From Caldilineae bacterium (lineage in GTDB: Bacteria > Chloroflexota > Anaerolineae > Epilineales > Epilineaceae): 64,000 bases of DNA. The stretch spans positions 158,275 to 222,274 of the forward strand of contig JACKBJ010000002.1 of assembly GCA_020634625.1 (NCBI GenBank). Direction: 5' to 3'. Below are positions 4,595 to 51,497 of the stretch, piece after piece; positions within the stretch are counted from its first letter, which is position 1; every line of letters begins with the position of its first letter. The position numbers were made by a program, and so were the translations under genes. The notes under the pieces were generated by a model, which saw only the letters and a list, made by a program, of their open reading frames with translations, was not told the DNA's origin and did no database searches.

Positions 4595-7129
4595 ATGAAG
4601 CAACGCTTTGCCCTGATCGGCGCCCTGGCCCTTTTGGTGGCCGTGGCCGCTCCGAGCCCCCGCCTGCTCCAGGCCGACGCGTCCTCGGAGCTGGCACGCC
4701 TGCGCGTCGCGCATGCTTCGCCCGATGCGCCGGCCGTCGACATCCTGGTCGACGACGCGCTCGCCTTCGCCAACATCGACTTCGAGGATCTGACCGACTA
4801 CGCCATCCTGCCCGCCGGCACCCACACCATCAAGGTCGTTCCGACCGGCGCCACCGAGCCGGTGGTGATCGAGGCCGAGCTGACCCTGGCGGCCGAGACC
4901 GACTACACCGTCGCCGCCGCCGGCCTGCTGGCCGAGATCGCGCCGGTGGTCTTCGTCGACGACAACCGGCTGCCCGAGCCGGGCAAGGCGCACCTGCGCT
5001 TCGTCCACCTGTCGCCCGATGCGCCGGCCGTCGACATCGGCGTCAAGGACGGGCCGACGCTCTTCGAGAACGTGGCCTTCCCCGAAGCCGGCGCCTACGT
5101 CCCGGTCGACGCGGGCCGCTACACCCTCGAGGTCAGCCCGAGCGGTATGCCCGTGGTGGCGCTGGAGGTGCCCGACGTCGCGCTCGAGGCGGGTACCGTC
5201 TACACCGTCTTTGCCATGGGCCGCCTGGCGGACATGTCGCTGGAGCCGGTGATCGCTGTCGACGCCACGACGCCGGATCCGGGTCGGGCCCGCGTCCGGG
5301 TCGCGCATGCCTCGCCCGACGCGCCGGCCGTCGACATCCTGGTCGACGACGCGCTGGCCTTCTCGAACGCGTCCTTCGGCGCCATCACCGACTACGCCGA
5401 GCTGCCCGCCGGCACCCACACCATCAAGGTCGTTCCGACCGGCGCCACCGAGCCGGTGGTCATCGAGGCCGAGCTGACCCTGGCGGCCGAGACCGACTAC
5501 ACTGTCGCCGCCGCCGGCCTGCTGGCCGAGATCGCGCCGGTGGTCTTCGTCGACGACAACCGGCTGCCCGAGCCGGGCAAGGCGCACCTGCGCTTCGTCC
5601 ACCTGTCGCCCGATGCGCCGGCGGTCGACATCGGCGTCAAGGACGGGCCGACGCTCTTCGAGAACGTGGCCTTCCCCGAGGCCGGCGCCTACGTCCCGGT
5701 CGACGCGGGCCGCTACACCCTCGAGGTCAGCCCGAGCGGTATGCCCGTGGTGGCGCTGGAGGTGCCCGACGTCGCGCTCGAGGCGGGTACCGTCTACACC
5801 GTCTTTGCCATGGGCCGCCTGGCGGACATGTCGCTGGAGCCGGTGATCGCTGTCGACGCCACGACGCCGGATCCGGGTCGGGCCCGCGTCCGGGTCGCGC
5901 ATGCCTCGCCCGACGCGCCGGCCGTCGACATCCTGGTCGACGACGCGCTGGCCTTCTCGAACGCGGCCTTCGGCGCCATCACCGACTACGCCGAGCTGCC
6001 CGCCGGCACCCACACCATCAAGGTCGTTCCGACCGGCGCCACCGAGCCGGTGGTCATCGAGGCCGAGCTGACCCTGGCGGCCGAGACCGACTACACCGTC
6101 GCCGCCGCCGGCCTGCTGGCCGAGATCGCGCCGGTGGTCTTCGTCGACGACAACCGGCTGCCCGAGCCGGGCAAGGCGCACTTGCGCTTCGTCCACCTCT
6201 CGCCCGATGCGCCGGCGGTCGACATCGGCGTCAAGGACGGCCCGACGCTCTTCGAGAACGTGGCCTTCCCCGAGGCCGGCGCCTACGTCGCGGTCGACGC
6301 GGGCCGCTACACCCTCGAGGTCAGCCCGAGCGGTATGCCCGTGGTGGCGCTGGAGGTGCCCGACGTCGCGCTCGAGGCGGGTACCGTCTACACCGTCTTT
6401 GCCATGGGCCGCCTGGCGGACATGTCGCTGGAGCCGGTGATCGCTGTCGACGCCACGACGCCGGATCCGGGTCGGGCCCGCGTCCGGGTTGCGCATGCCT
6501 CGCCCGACGCGCCGGCCGTCGACATCCTGGTCGACGACGCGCTGGCCTTCTCGAACGCGGCCTTCGGCGCCATCACCGACTACGCCGAGCTGCCCGCCGG
6601 CACCCACACCATCAAGGTCGTTCCGACCGGCGCCGCCGAGCCGGTGGTCATCGAGGCCGAGCTGACCCTGGCGGCCGAGACCGACTACACCGTCGCCGCC
6701 GCCGGCCTGCTGGCCGAGATCGCTCCGCTGGTCCTGGTGGACGACAACCGCCAGCCGGCAGCCGGCCAGGCGCATGTACGCTTCGTGCACGCCTCGCCCG
6801 ATGCCCCGGCGGTGGACATCGCCGTCGCCGACGGCGGCCCGGTCCTCTTCGCGAACATCGCCTTCGGCGAGGTCGGCGCCTATCTGCCGGTCGGCGCGAA
6901 CCGCTACGACCTGGAGGTGCGCCTGGCCGGCACCGACACGGTTGCCCTGACGGTGCCCGGCCTGAAGCTGGAGGCGGGCAAGGTCTACACCGTCTTCGCC
7001 ATGGGGCTCGCCGGCGGCGAGCCCAGCCTGCGCGCCGTCGCGACCGTCGACGCCAGCTACCCCGACCTCACGCCACCGACGCCCGACGTCAACACGATCT
7101 ACCTGCCGGCCCTCATGAAGTCGTACTGA
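4595..7129 (+). CDS. Secreted repeat protein built from eight or more DUF4397-like modules
   Basis: There is an RBS (ggagg) 5 nt upstream of the ATG and a signal peptide (MKQRFALIGALALLVAVAAP). The motif R[VL]xVAHASPDAPAVDI alternating with LRFVHLSPDAPAVDIGV recurs throughout. The gene is followed by a strong hairpin. Confidence 0.75.
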   Translation: MKQRFALIGALALLVAVAAPSPRLLQADASSELARLRVAHASPDAPAVDILVDDALAFANIDFEDLTDYAILPAGTHTIKVVPTGATEPVVIEAELTLAAETDYTVAAAGLLAEIAPVVFVDDNRLPEPGKAHLRFVHLSPDAPAVDIGVKDGPTLFENVAFPEAGAYVPVDAGRYTLEVSPSGMPVVALEVPDVALEAGTVYTVFAMGRLADMSLEPVIAVDATTPDPGRARVRVAHASPDAPAVDILVDDALAFSNASFGAITDYAELPAGTHTIKVVPTGATEPVVIEAELTLAAETDYTVAAAGLLAEIAPVVFVDDNRLPEPGKAHLRFVHLSPDAPAVDIGVKDGPTLFENVAFPEAGAYVPVDAGRYTLEVSPSGMPVVALEVPDVALEAGTVYTVFAMGRLADMSLEPVIAVDATTPDPGRARVRVAHASPDAPAVDILVDDALAFSNAAFGAITDYAELPAGTHTIKVVPTGATEPVVIEAELTLAAETDYTVAAAGLLAEIAPVVFVDDNRLPEPGKAHLRFVHLSPDAPAVDIGVKDGPTLFENVAFPEAGAYVAVDAGRYTLEVSPSGMPVVALEVPDVALEAGTVYTVFAMGRLADMSLEPVIAVDATTPDPGRARVRVAHASPDAPAVDILVDDALAFSNAAFGAITDYAELPAGTHTIKVVPTGAAEPVVIEAELTLAAETDYTVAAAGLLAEIAPLVLVDDNRQPAAGQAHVRFVHASPDAPAVDIAVADGGPVLFANIAFGEVGAYLPVGANRYDLEVRLAGTDTVALTVPGLKLEAGKVYTVFAMGLAGGEPSLRAVATVDASYPDLTPPTPDVNTIYLPALMKSY
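4690..6730. repeat. Tandem direct repeat, 594-bp unit, about 3.4 copies, nearly identical at the nucleotide level, inside the DUF4397-like gene
   Basis: Identical shadow ORFs recur at 5019, 5613 and 6207 on the plus strand and at 5200, 5794 and 6388 on the minus strand, giving a period of 594. The protein copies differ by only one or two residues (NASFGA versus NAAFGA, YVPVD versus YVAVD). The first and last copies are more diverged. Confidence 0.85.
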
Positions 7130-7212: not shown

Positions 7213-7539
7213 AGTTCAAGCACCGGAGGCAGGTGCTGCCCCCGGTCGCCGCTGTCTCCTTCCGCCCTACTCCCCCTCGCCACCCGACGAGGTGGGCGTG
7301 CCCTGGGGCGCGATCACGCCTGTCCGAGGCTCAGACCGCCGCCCCGAGCGACGAAAGGCCGCATGAGGGCGCCTGCGGCCCTACGTCACGCCATCCGCCC
7401 ACCGAGTTCGTGAGCGCGCCCCAGGGCATGCCCGCCTCGTCGCGACCCCGGTCGTCGCACCATCCTTCCGCCTTTCTGCCGCCTCAACGCCCTGCCGCCT
7501 CATCGCCCTGCCGCCCCGCCACCCCGCCACCCACCAAGC

Positions 7540-8874
7540 TCACGGCGCCGCCTCCGCCGCCGCCTCCGCCATGATCAAGTACAGCCCCTGCCCATACGGC
7601 TTGATCGCATCGAACGGCACCTGGCCGTAAACCTCGATCGAAGGCGCCACCCCGGTACCCGTCGACACCCGCGTCAGCGTCCCGTCCTCGGCCACCAGCG
7701 CGTCCACCGCCCGGGCCGCCGTCAACCCGACCGATCGCAGCCGCCCATCGACCCAGCCGGCCTCGCTCGCGCGCAGCATCGCCGCCGCGATCGCCGCGCT
7801 GCCGGAGCTCTCTTCGTAGAAATCGTTGCGCGTCACGACCGTATGCCACAACCCGGACCGCGCCTGAAGCACCGCCAGCCCGGTCAGCTGCCGCTCCAGG
7901 CGCGCCCGCAGCTGGGCCTGCCAATAGCCGTCCTCCGGCAGCCAGCGCAGCGCCTCCGTCGTCGCCAGCGCCGCCCAGCCGTTGCCGCGGGCCCACTGCG
8001 CCGCCGACAGATGCGGCTGCAGCCCGGCCCGGAAGTCCGACAGGTCCCAGCCGTGGAACCAGCGCCCGCTGGCCGGATCCTGAAGCCGTCGCGCGTGCGC
8101 CAACAGCTCGTCGACCGCCAGGCTCAGACAGCTGGCGCAGCCCTGCTGGGCGCCGTAGCGCGCCAGGAGCGGCACGCTCACGATCAGCGTGTCGTCCCAG
8201 AGCTGGTCGTCATAGTGGGCCAGCGTGCCGTGGACCCGCGGCGCTCGGTTCATCAGGTAGTCCACCGATCGGCGGGCGACCGCCAGGTAGCGTGGGTCCG
8301 GGCGCAGCTCGTAGAGCATGAGCGCCGCCCAGGCCGGCGTCGCCTGGTTTGGATGCGACAGGACCGGATCCGTCACCAGACGGGCGTCGAACCAGGCCGC
8401 CACCGCATCGAGCAGCGCCGGGTCCTCGGTCTGCCGGTAGGCCTGCATCAGGCCGGCCATGGCCACGCCGGCCTCCCAGTCCCAGACGTTGATCGCCGCG
8501 TCGGGCGCCTCGGTCATCGCCAGCGTGCGCGCCGCCACCCGCAGGCTGCGCTCGCGGGCGGCCGATTGGTCGATGACGCCGACCGCCGCCGGAGCTGGCG
8601 CGGCGCCCGAGGCTCCCGCGGCCTGCGCCGCTTCCGTCGGCCCCGCCGCGCGGGACGGAATCGTCGTGGCGGCGCCCGCCGCAGCCGCCACGACCCGCAC
8701 GCTCGGGATCTCCAGGGCCGCCCGCGGGGCGAGCGGCCGGCTCGAACCGGCCAGCGGCAGCGCCCCGAGCAAAAACGCCACGAGCGGCGGCACCGCGAGT
8801 CGAAGGGCATGCCGGTCGCGGCATCCGCCGGCAACCTGGCGTCTCGCGTCCCGATCGGCTCTCGGATCGTGCAT
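7540..8874 (-). CDS. Glycoside hydrolase family 88/105 (unsaturated glucuronyl / rhamnogalacturonyl hydrolase, YteR-like), secreted
   Basis: Family motifs are present: VWDWEAGVAMAGLMQAY, DDTLIVSVPLLARYG and RGNGWAALATTEAL. The protein has an N-terminal hydrophobic signal region. Confidence 0.7.
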   Translation of the reverse strand: MHDPRADRDARRQVAGGCRDRHALRLAVPPLVAFLLGALPLAGSSRPLAPRAALEIPSVRVVAAAAGAATTIPSRAAGPTEAAQAAGASGAAPAPAAVGVIDQSAARERSLRVAARTLAMTEAPDAAINVWDWEAGVAMAGLMQAYRQTEDPALLDAVAAWFDARLVTDPVLSHPNQATPAWAALMLYELRPDPRYLAVARRSVDYLMNRAPRVHGTLAHYDDQLWDDTLIVSVPLLARYGAQQGCASCLSLAVDELLAHARRLQDPASGRWFHGWDLSDFRAGLQPHLSAAQWARGNGWAALATTEALRWLPEDGYWQAQLRARLERQLTGLAVLQARSGLWHTVVTRNDFYEESSGSAAIAAAMLRASEAGWVDGRLRSVGLTAARAVDALVAEDGTLTRVSTGTGVAPSIEVYGQVPFDAIKPYGQGLYLIMAEAAAEAAP

Positions 8875-8968
8875 GGCCCAACTTTACAGGAAGCGGGACT
8901 GAACGGCCCCGCGCGAGCCGGTTGGAGACATGACGCAGGACCGCGAGGCTGGCTTGCAGTGGCGCCAT

Positions 8969-9013
8969 GCAAACGAGCAGCCCACGCGCCGAAGCGGTGG
9001 GCTGCTCGTTTGC
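8969..9013. terminator. 17-bp perfect-stem hairpin immediately 3' of tRNA-Ala (GCAAACGAGCAGCCCAC / GTGGGCTGCTCGTTTGC)
   Basis: Perfect inverted repeat with an 11-nt loop. It lies 10 nt downstream of the tRNA 3' end on the minus strand. Confidence 0.6.
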
Positions 9014-9023
9014 GAGGCATCAG

Positions 9024-9096
<73 letters not shown>

Positions 9097-9107
9097 GGAA
9101 GACCGAT

Positions 9108-9113
9108 ATTATA
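9108..9113 (-). promoter_or_regulatory. -10 element (TATAAT) for tRNA-Ala
   Basis: The minus strand reads cctataatatcggtcttcc followed by the tRNA +1. Confidence 0.5.
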
Positions 9114-26950: not shown

Positions 26951-27062
26951 CTCTCATCTCTCGATCCGCGCTGTCGCGCGAGCCGGCGGACTTGGCACCG
27001 TGGCCTTGGCCTGGTTGCCGGGGTTTCGTCGGGCCGTTCCCTCCACCCCTCTCGATAAGATC
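26951..27062 (-). promoter_or_regulatory. SAM-I (S-box) riboswitch aptamer
   Basis: The minus strand reads UCUUAUCGAGAGGGGUGGAGGGAACGGCCCGACGAAACCCCGGCAACCAGGCC...GGUGCCAAGUCCGCC...GAUCGAGAGAUGAGAGG. This matches the S-box consensus blocks (UCUUAUCaAGAG, GGAGGGA, GGCCCgAUGAA, GCAACC, GGUGCnAAnUCC, closing AGAUGAGAG). The P1 helix is UCUUAUC/GAUGAGA. Confidence 0.85.
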
Positions 27063-49315: not shown

Positions 49316-49920
49316 CTAGGGGGCGGTCGGGCTGGCCGGTTCCAGCGCGGCCAGCCCGGATGCGGCGCGGTCGCGGGCGGCTTCGGCCAGGCGGAGCAGG
49401 TGCTCGGCGTCGTCGGCTCGGTTGGTTCCGACCAGGATGAGCGCGTCGTCGATGCGGAAGGAGGCGGCCTGATAGACGCCCGAGACCCAGCGCCGGCCTT
49501 CGGTGACGCCGTCGAGCGCCAGCGCTTCGCTCTGGAGGCCGAGGGCCGAGCCAAGCAGGGGCGCGGCGGCGGCGTCGAGCGCGCGGGCCTCGTCGGCGCT
49601 GGCGAAGAGGAGCGCGGCGCTGCTGATCTCCTCGCCGGTGCTGGCATCGCGCCAGGTCACGAGCTCGCGGCTGGCCGGCAGCGCGAGGCGGCCCAAGGTG
49701 GCGCCGCTGGCCATGCGCTCGGCCTGGCGCAGATCGATCGGCGGGCTGCTGCGCTGCAGCGGGCCGATGGGGAGGGTGGCCGAGATGTCGTCGCCGCTCA
49801 GGGTCAGGCGGGCGGCGCGGTCGTCGGCGGGGGCGGCCGGGGGAGCGAGGCAGCGGTTGATGGACAGGGTGGCGATGGCCAGGGCGGCCAGGGCCAGGAG
49901 GAGCGGGCGGCGTCGGCGGG
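49316..49920 (-). CDS. Hypothetical protein with an N-terminal Arg-rich / TM anchor (RRRRPLLLALAALAIATL)
   Basis: The ORF continues into the C-rich strand of the G-run region, which is probably not coding. The true start is uncertain. Confidence 0.3.
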
Positions 49921-50064
49921 GTGGGGGGGGGGTGTGGATCGTGGGGGGGGCGTCGAGCGGGGAGGCGGTGGGGAGGCGGAAGGCGATGGGGATCCAGTGG
50001 GGGGTTGCGTGTTCATGCTGGGGATTATAGCGGGGGGAGCACGTATAATCGGGGGGGTGTGGCG

Positions 50065-50211
50065 GGGCGGGGCCTGCCGTGGAGCGGGGCATCGGAACTC
50101 GGGGGGCGGCTGGGGCGGGGGCGGGGCAGGGCGCGCGGCGGTGGATGGGGCGGTGGGCGGGTCAGATCGCCCTCGGACGGTCAATGCCCCGCTCCACGGC
50201 AGGCCCCGCCC
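50065..50211 (+). repeat. 28-bp perfect inverted repeat flanking a 91-nt G-rich spacer, in the leader of the Sua5-like gene
   Basis: 50065-50092 is GGGCGGGGCCTGCCGTGGAGCGGGGCAT, and 50184-50211 is its exact reverse complement. TATAAT-like boxes lie just upstream at about 50025-50048. Confidence 0.8.
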
Positions 50212-50330
50212 TGGTGGACCGGGAAGCGTTGAGGATGGAGCGGGGGAGTTGGTTGGAATCGGGAGAGCTGGATGAGGAGCTCCCATGGCTGGGTGAAGGG
50301 GGAGGGGAGATCGGGGTGAGGGCGCGGGTG

Positions 50331-51497
50331 ATGTGGGTGGTGGAGGGGGCCGCGTTGGTGGAGGCGCTGGCGCCGGCGGCGGCGTTGTTGCGGGCGGGCG
50401 GGTTGGTGGCCTTTCCGACCGAGACCGTCTATGGGTTGGGCGCGAACGCGCTGGACGCGGTGGCGGTACGGCGCATCTTCGAGGCCAAGGGGCGGCCGGC
50501 GGAGGATCCGCTGATCGTGCACGTGCTGGGGCTGGCGGAGGCGCAGGCGTTGTCGCCGGGCTTTCCCGAGCTGGCGCGGCGGCTGGCCGAGGCCTTCTGG
50601 CCCGGCCCGCTGACCCTGGTGGTGCCGCGTGGCCCGTCCCTGCCGGCGGCGGTCAGCGCGGGGCTGGACAGCGTGGCGCTGCGGGCGCCGTCGCACCCGG
50701 TGGCCCGGGCCCTGCTGCGCGCGGCGGGCGTTCCGGTGGCGGCGCCCAGCGCCAACCCCTTCGGCCGCATCAGCCCGACCCGGGCCGAGCACGTGCTGGC
50801 CGACCTGGGCGATCGCATCGACCTGGTGATCGACGGGGGACCGGCCGAAGTCGGCGTCGAGTCGACGGTGGTGGACTGTCGCGGTGAGCAGGCGCTGCTG
50901 CTGCGGCCGGGTGGGGTGTCGCTGGAGGCGCTGCGGGCGGTGGTCGGGGAGGTCCGGCTGGCGGGGGCGGGTGAAGCGGAGGCGGGGATGGGGCCGCAGC
51001 GGTCGCCGGGGACGATGCTGCGGCACTATGCGCCGCGGGCGCGGCTGGTGCTGGTGGTCGGTGAGGCGGAGCAGGTGGGCGAGGCGATCGGCCAGGCGGC
51101 GCTCGGGCTGGCGGCGAAGGGCCGGCGGGTGGGGCTCTTGCTGGCCGAGGAAGATCGGGCGCGCTGGGCCGGGGAGGAAGACGGGCAGGCTGCGGGAGGC
51201 GGGTCGGGGCCGGCGCCGGAGCAGACCGCCGGGCCGCCGGGCGGGCCGCGATGGCGGGTGCTCGGGAGCCTGAGGGACCTGGAGGCGGTGGCGCGGGCCC
51301 TGTTCGGGGCGCTGCGCGAGCTGGACGCGGCGGGGGTCGACTGCATCCTCGCGCGGGACTTCGGCGGGCAGGGGATGGGGCTGGCGCTGCGGGATCGGCT
51401 GAGCCGGGCGGCCGAGGGGCGGGTGCTCAGGCTGGAGTCGCAGGAAGGGCCCTCGGCCGCCGCGGCTCGGATCGAGCGGGCGGTCGAGGGCCCTTGA
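50331..51497 (+). CDS. L-threonylcarbamoyladenylate synthase (Sua5/YciO/YrdC family, YrdC domain plus Sua5 C-terminal domain)
   Basis: LRAGGLVAFPTETVYGLGANALDAVAVRRIFEAKGRPAEDPLIVHV. The start was set at MWVVEG; the upstream G-rich extension in the track is judged non-coding. Confidence 0.8.
   Translation: MWVVEGAALVEALAPAAALLRAGGLVAFPTETVYGLGANALDAVAVRRIFEAKGRPAEDPLIVHVLGLAEAQALSPGFPELARRLAEAFWPGPLTLVVPRGPSLPAAVSAGLDSVALRAPSHPVARALLRAAGVPVAAPSANPFGRISPTRAEHVLADLGDRIDLVIDGGPAEVGVESTVVDCRGEQALLLRPGGVSLEALRAVVGEVRLAGAGEAEAGMGPQRSPGTMLRHYAPRARLVLVVGEAEQVGEAIGQAALGLAAKGRRVGLLLAEEDRARWAGEEDGQAAGGGSGPAPEQTAGPPGGPRWRVLGSLRDLEAVARALFGALRELDAAGVDCILARDFGGQGMGLALRDRLSRAAEGRVLRLESQEGPSAAAARIERAVEGP

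Follow-up and report, generated by a model that had tools for sequence, protein, structure and literature searches.

A perfect 28-bp inverted repeat in the sua5 leader of a Caldilineae bacterium, a candidate member of a small family of palindromic intergenic repeats

The leader of sua5/tsaC, the gene for threonylcarbamoyl-AMP synthase, carries a 28-bp perfect inverted repeat in the Caldilineae bacterium (Chloroflexota) whose contig JACKBJ010000002.1 supplied the 64,000-nt stretch of DNA analysed here, hereafter the window. Our reading, to which we give a probability of about one half, is that this repeat, called element A, belongs to a small family of hairpin-forming palindromic intergenic repeats of ~150-160 bp, similar to transposable elements of the miniature inverted-repeat type (MITEs), and that it landed in the sua5 leader. 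This reading is carried by a diverged second repeat of the same geometry elsewhere in the window, element B, and by the absence of any comparable repeat upstream of sua5 in relatives. An earlier annotation made from the letters of the sequence only (the original prediction) had offered two interpretations of the repeat, an attenuator or regulatory RNA and a MITE-like element; the second is the better of the two, and the attenuator idea is unsupported.

Element A is composed of a left arm at 50065-50092 and a right arm at 50184-50211 of the plus strand, each of them perfect over its length and the two being exact reverse complements at 28 of 28 nt, around a G-rich spacer or loop of 91 nt (50093-50183) that contains a four-tract G-quadruplex (G4) motif at 50101-50126. 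The arms and spacer first described by the original prediction proved exact, and such a repeat was absent from shuffled sequence: with up to 3 mismatches the 28-mer occurs at two sites only in the window, where none was expected from 100 shuffles. If imperfect pairing is allowed, the repeat search widens the arms to 44 nt at 84% (50065-50108 and 50168-50211), and the size of the element is 147 bp in its perfect form (50065-50211), ~50056-50216 with the imperfect extension, and 147-165 bp overall. Folding of 50040-50240 as RNA gave -120.8 kcal/mol (z -5.4) for the plus strand and -94.9 kcal/mol (z -6.7) for the minus strand; the 28-bp stem by itself reaches -72.6 kcal/mol, and in the minimum free energy structure the extended stem begins at 50056. 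No codon periodicity could be observed across 50030-50300, which leaves element A without coding capacity. From the ATG at the inner end of either arm, the outward reading (50092-50065 on the minus strand, 50184-50211 on the plus strand) is MPRSTAGPA both ways; this shared reading was taken as incidental because the arms of element B do not have it. A 1354-aa open reading frame (ORF) at 357 begins MSSCMPRSPAGNP, and its likeness to MPRSTAGPA is probably a coincidence.

The inverted repeat of element A is not an assembly artefact, since independent short-read assemblies carry the same sequence. Among the Logan short-read contigs of the same species that were compared with the window, four (L009, L021, L022 and L023) cover the element: L009 holds both arms and the spacer with zero differences, and the other three, from other runs, carry the spacer and the right arm, which is invariant in 5 sequences. 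The lone single-nucleotide polymorphism inside the loop is 50164 A>C, in L021, and two variants fall at the base of the stem, at 50212, where L023 has T>CG, for a stem of 30 bp, and L021 has T>CC, which adds 1 bp. A palindromic chimera or mis-join in hard-to-sequence G-rich DNA would be a natural objection, and short-read contigs of several samples do end in or beside the region, with L001 stopping at ~49893 and L009, L022, L023 and L021 starting at 50033, 50079, 50096 and 50122, respectively. Every examined short-read contig breaks there, and the region is therefore hard to assemble. Even so, coverage of both arms and the spacer at 100% identity in L009, together with the three further assemblies, refutes this objection for the inverted repeat itself; the homopolymer lengths in 49923-50004 stand apart from that verdict. 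L008, another locus of this species, is likewise broken within or next to the G-rich hairpin.

Element B (7285-7442, plus strand) is the sole other long inverted repeat with a large loop in the window. It has 34-nt arms at 91% around a 90-nt spacer, lies in a convergent intergenic region between the genes 4595..7129 and 7540..8874, the latter coding for a GH88 enzyme, folds at -102.3 kcal/mol (z -6.9) and is identical in two further samples. The plus strand of B and the reverse complement of A are 62% identical over 153 aligned columns, spacers included. This whole-element alignment scores 79, compared to 43 +/- 7 when the sequence is shuffled with its inverted repeat kept intact, and none of 2000 such shuffles reaches the observed score. 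When the spacers are compared on their own, the reverse complement of A against B scores 39 (null 9 +/- 7.5, reached by 0 of 3000 shuffles), whereas the opposite orientation scores -6 (null about -10 +/- 7, p 0.31). Real 90-nt windows of sequence have a mean score of 0.4, with a fraction of 0.0009 reaching 39, and C-rich real windows have a mean of 11.6, with a fraction of 0.0036. When applied to a negative control, L026 5079-5210, which is an unrelated inverted repeat whose spacer has 94 nt, the same test gave p 0.35-0.89, and therefore does not fire for any pair of repeats; considered as a third family member, that repeat was rejected, as it has no similarity to A or B. In the long-arm stem, 10 of 29 pairs differ on both sides between the two elements with pairing kept (36 pairs are predicted in total). 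These comparisons suggest that A and B are probably homologous.

A number of observations weigh against a mobile family. Only two copies, 62% identical, were found in ~74 kb of DNA of this species, and a search of the window, 14 related loci and 10 kb past the right end with R1, a covariance model built from A and B, returned no third copy, its matches elsewhere being generic hairpins at E>0.0005. The homology of A and B itself rests on p values of ~0.001-0.004 without an unambiguous alignment, and blastn of A against B within the window gives an E of ~0.1 only. The exact 22-mer of the arm had one match among GTDB representative genomes, in a coding sequence of Acidobacteria and due to chance, and the exact 20-mer had six matches in JGI metagenomes, all of them chance and none related to the element; exact-mer scans of this kind would miss copies as diverged as B, and likewise did not recover the locus of the source genome itself. 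In a plasmid collection, blastn of A and B found no match, and no transposase partner is known for either element. Clean direct repeats that could be a target-site duplication were not seen in the flanks of A (...GTGTGGCG|arm, arm|TGGTGGAC) or in those of B (...CGCCACC|arm, arm|CGACCCC), and the strain assemblies show no filled-versus-empty polymorphism for A or for B. Two of the criteria for a MITE, terminal inverted repeats and a small non-coding size, hold for element A, but membership of A and B in this class is not established. What stands of the MITE-like interpretation is the diverged, similar B of the same geometry and the absence of the element in a relative, L010; same-arm copies, clean flanking repeats and insertion polymorphism did not appear, and the further copies of the 28-mer that the original prediction had suggested looking for are lacking in the window, the GTDB representatives and the JGI metagenomes, with the diverged B found in their place. 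As a warning on short GC-rich probes, four of the six JGI matches (L015, L016, L018 and L020) have the 20-mer CCTGCCGTGGAGCGGGGCAT in nearly identical coding sequence of unrelated metagenome contigs, in the frame ...YVPAVERGI..., which we take to be a conserved motif of the elongation factor G (EF-G) type.

Outside the species, the closest Sua5 proteins are 59-63% identical. L010, a distant relative whose Sua5 is 63% identical, retains the divergent gene pair: an uncalled ORF in it matches the minus-strand protein of the window at 46% identity over 166 aa (E 3e-33). Only ~84 nt separate the two start codons in L010, with a single TATTATAAT box at the place equivalent to the plus-strand TATAAT of the window, and the orthologous intergenic region holds no long inverted repeat. 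L011 and L014 have other genes upstream of sua5 and no comparable inverted repeat. Because these three relatives have no comparable repeat at this position, element A appears to be a lineage-specific addition and not a conserved sua5 leader, which goes against the conservation upstream of sua5 orthologues that had been considered in the original prediction.

The sua5/tsaC gene itself (50331..51497, plus strand) codes for a protein with the domains Sua5_yciO_yrdC and Sua5_C and corresponds to NCBI MCB9175930.1, from a Caldilineae bacterium metagenome-assembled genome (MAG), where it is encoded on a contig of 296 kb. NCBI places the start at ATG 50331 in both MAGs, giving a 388-aa model. Downstream of element A, the remainder of the leader (50212-50330) is purine-rich, and it is non-coding since strain sequences differ by 1-nt indels, three different ones being present among 5 sequences in 50212-50310 (at 50212, 50298 and 50303). 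N-terminal extensions of Sua5 from ATG 50184 (437 aa) or ATG 50236 (420 aa) were rejected: the three indels break their frame, and the start at ATG 50331 in both MAG proteins also counters them. Gene callers at this locus give Sua5 models of 388, 393, 420, 429 and 437 aa. Inside the gene, GC skew is positive again at 50800-51400 (+0.25 to +0.40), which coincides with a Gly-rich insertion (…EEDGQAAGGGSGPAPEQTAGPPGG…) between the two Sua5 domains, and insertions in this linker vary among relatives, whose proteins have 341-486 aa.

Two TATAAT boxes stand back to back between sua5 and the divergent gene, one on the minus strand at 50024-50029, 7 nt from ATG 50016, and one on the plus strand at 50044-50049, a perfect hexamer that would be the -10 box of sua5. 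The original prediction had listed both, and both are real, on opposite strands and highly non-random: the window contains five TATAAT hexamers compared to 0.29 expected, and two of the five are here. Among the other three, one is directly upstream of a tRNA gene (9024-9096, minus strand), where a perfect TATAAT occupies 9108-9113, and one is directly upstream of yebC (45629). TATAAT looks like a real -10 signal in this genome because it is rare and promoter-associated. A two-hexamer scan found no match to a -35 hexamer at 16-18 nt for either box. By its distance from the plus-strand box, transcription of sua5 would start at ~50056, within a G7 run. Co-transcription of the hairpin with sua5, as originally proposed, is likely since the element begins ~8-15 nt past that box. 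The stem is not an intrinsic terminator or attenuator because no U-tract follows it, the next bases being CCCUGGUGGACCGGG, and no intrinsic terminator was found in 49700-50500. A regulatory RNA of a known family finds no support either: searches with Rfam 15 gave nothing at the gathering score over the whole window, and at E<=10 the sole match around A was a chance one that lies outside the element (50415-50500, E 6.7), with nothing overlapping element B.

The richness in G runs, G4 potential and strand skew noted by the original prediction are borne out by run counts, a motif search and skew values. Six of the nine runs of at least six G in the window fall within 49923-50106 of the plus strand (G10 at 49923-49932, G8 at 49943-49950, G6 at 49999-50004, G6 at 50032-50037, G7 at 50051-50057 and G6 at 50101-50106), and GC skew in the region reaches +0.5 to +0.58 at its peak. 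Canonical G4 motifs, defined as four G3+ tracts with loops of 1-7 nt, were sought by regular expression; four of the six in the window sit in 50051-50349, all on the plus strand (50051-50072, 50101-50126, 50291-50316 and 50320-50349) with none on the minus strand, and the last two overlap the Shine-Dalgarno-like GGAGG and the start region of sua5. When G-quadruplex energies are included, ViennaRNA predicts a G4 in the loop of A, with the stem retained, and another across 50300-50322, adjoining the start codon. Three sources would account for the G runs: the divergent gene with its CCC proline codons (49900-50016), the element through its C-rich strand, and the purine-rich leader. Quadruplexes described in bacterial promoters and 5' untranslated regions (5'-UTRs) are alike in that four G3+N1-7 motifs lie here on the sense strand around the promoter, the loop and the ribosome-binding site; they are unlike in that the motifs here are missing from element B and from relatives, and are predicted only.

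The sequence of events that we propose is that, in this Caldilineae lineage, copy A landed downstream of the native -10 box of sua5/tsaC and ahead of its start codon. Transcription from TATAAT 50044-50049, starting at ~50056, would then place a 28-30-bp stem at the extreme 5' end of a ~275-nt sua5 leader. If element A acts at all, it may do so post-transcriptionally, either as a double-stranded RNA substrate of the RNase III type or as a 5'-terminal hairpin that protects the end of the mRNA, and the predicted G4-prone loop and G4-prone ribosome-binding region could be extra modulators. All of these effects on sua5 expression, by RNase III processing, 5'-end protection or G4 formation, are inferences.

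A neutral local rearrangement could also have produced element A, through a fold-back or template-switch inverted duplication or through quasi-palindrome correction, with no family and no function involved. The perfect identity of the arms with a sharp boundary is in keeping with such an event, as are the strain variants exactly at the base of the stem, which lengthen the repeat, and the failure to find same-arm copies elsewhere or a target-site duplication. We nevertheless hold this to be unlikely, since B shares the arm and spacer geometry and has a spacer alike in one orientation only, which would be unexpected from two independent events, and since the element is fixed in all sampled strains. 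The position of the hairpin right after the putative transcription start could instead point to a locus-specific cis-regulatory leader RNA of sua5/tsaC, in which the stem and G4 loop work as a switch, thermosensor or ligand sensor, and in which translation or stability would be under the control of this element or of a further G4 covering the ribosome-binding site. The two G4s predicted by ViennaRNA are consistent with it, and 5 strain sequences show no variation in the arms but 4-5 changes in the leader downstream, a difference that is not significant by our estimate (p ~0.06-0.09). Relatives whose Sua5 proteins are 59-63% identical have nothing similar ahead of the gene, no Rfam family matches, no U-tract follows the stem, and the homologous B sits between the 3' ends of convergent genes, at a locus that has nothing to do with sua5; a leader RNA of this sort is improbable.

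The co-variation of the stems could also be explained if A and B were genes of a new family of structured non-coding RNAs, with a long closing stem and an interior of ~90 nt, each transcribed on its own, A from the minus strand and B from the plus strand. Ten stem pairs changed on both sides with pairing kept, spacer lengths maintained at 90 and 91 nt, and the strong fold z-scores of A on its minus strand (-6.7) and of B (-6.9) would all agree with this. However, from two sequences only, covariation is indistinguishable from the co-evolution of terminal repeats in a mobile element, A and B have no bracketing promoter or terminator in that orientation, and the interior is weakly conserved and without an Rfam match; we regard RNA genes as distinctly improbable. 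Very doubtful, too, is a more ambitious combination, in which A and B would represent an undescribed Caldilineae family of structure-selected hairpins of ~150 nt, with a co-varying stem and a length-conserved interior, acting as RNA or as cruciform or G4 DNA, and in which the sua5 copy would couple its 28-30-bp stem, the loop G4 and the G4 of the ribosome-binding site into a switch for the synthesis of N6-threonylcarbamoyladenosine (t6A).

For a small palindromic repeat that landed in a leader, the closest described parallel to A is the Correia elements (CREE or NEMIS), a MITE of Neisseria. Correia elements have 153-157 bp, and where one separates a promoter from a gene it is transcribed, with RNase III cleaving the product (PMC2649163). 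Like A, they measure ~150 bp, have terminal inverted repeats of ~26-28 bp and are intergenic, often 5' of genes, and their hairpin joins the mRNA when it lies between native promoter and gene, where RNase III binds or cleaves it (PMC2649163). On the other hand, CREE have 100-250 near-identical copies, insertion polymorphism and an IHF site, and can create promoters, whereas A and B are two known copies at 62% identity in which no target-site duplication, polymorphism or IHF-like AT-rich core was seen, and the interior is extremely GC-rich and G4-prone. The REP units are described as imperfect palindromes of 20-40 bp tagged GTAG or CGTC (PMC3733652). REP/BIME and REPIN arrangements share with A and B the intergenic hairpins, the two inverted units around a spacer and the pairing kept as sequence diverges, but the arms of A and B are not self-complementary and have no GTAG or CGTC tag, their outer ends being GGGCGG (A) and CGACGA (B). 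No RAYT gene was noticed, though no search aimed at RAYT was made.

The ERIC/IRU, RUP and BOX repeats, reviewed in PMC2229807 and PMC10969869, are small non-coding imperfect palindromes of transcribed intergenic regions that can alter mRNA stability. Element A is likewise a small, non-coding, intergenic palindrome; what defines these families, however, is a consensus and a large number of copies, and A and B have no sequence relationship to them. The leaders of ompA, rnc and pnp in E. coli have 5' stabiliser hairpins or hairpins processed by RNase III, with stems that are short or imperfect and conserved with their genes. They resemble the sua5 leader in that both are long and have a stable stem close to or at the 5' end, but the stem of A is a perfect duplex of 28-30 bp and is of recent, lineage-specific origin.

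If our reading is right, an essential gene of tRNA modification, whose promoter-proximal region was short or leaderless, has gained from a palindromic repeat a long, highly structured and G4-prone leader. Our literature search returned no paper describing small palindromic repeats of this kind in Chloroflexota. Element A is nonetheless fairly ordinary, and the finding has no bearing on any long-standing open question. In practical terms, every short-read assembly examined breaks at the G runs and hairpin, and gene callers are misled into the N-terminal extensions of Sua5 of 420 and 437 aa.

The gene divergent from sua5 (49316..50016, minus strand) codes for a membrane-anchored protein for which Pfam has no family. 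Its body is in the frame of an ORF at 49316..50092, and it probably starts at ATG 50016-50014; 7 nt lie between the minus-strand TATAAT and this codon, a spacing that suggests a leaderless mRNA. In this frame, G+C content at third codon positions (GC3) is 0.93-0.97 up to ~49970, and the G10 and G8 homopolymers of the plus strand (49923-49932 and 49943-49950) are read on the minus strand as CCC proline codons of the N-terminal tail. The original prediction had treated all of 49900-50330 as intergenic; from 49900 to ~50016, GC3 and the homologue of the relative point to a Pro-rich coding N-terminus, and ~115 nt of the supposed intergenic span are most likely proline-codon coding sequence. In this assembly, a shift of one base puts ATG 50016 and the body of the gene in different frames; the two would be joined if one of the C6, C8 and C10 runs were longer by one C. 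The discrepancy is either a homopolymer error of the long-contig assembly or a variable run length; a homopolymer-length error has probably put the start of this neighbouring gene out of frame. No short-read contig crosses 49893-50033, where the corresponding G6, G8 and G10 sites lie.

Other features were seen in and near the window. The gene at 4595-7129 (plus strand), which precedes element B, codes for an 844-aa secreted protein with four nearly identical repeats of ~198 aa, and the exact protein has no record in the contig index. A hairpin with 29-nt arms at 8957-9025 adjoins the tRNA gene at 9024-9096. In a sister MAG (L026), ~1.2 kb (1,150-1,210 nt) past the right end of the window, a hairpin with 28-nt arms (93%) and a 1-nt loop at 8795-8851 sits in another divergent intergenic region, with a VWA gene on one side and an unknown gene on the other. 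Finally, an S-adenosylmethionine (SAM) riboswitch of the S-box type (RF00162) is present at 26951-27061 of the minus strand, with 77.3 bits.

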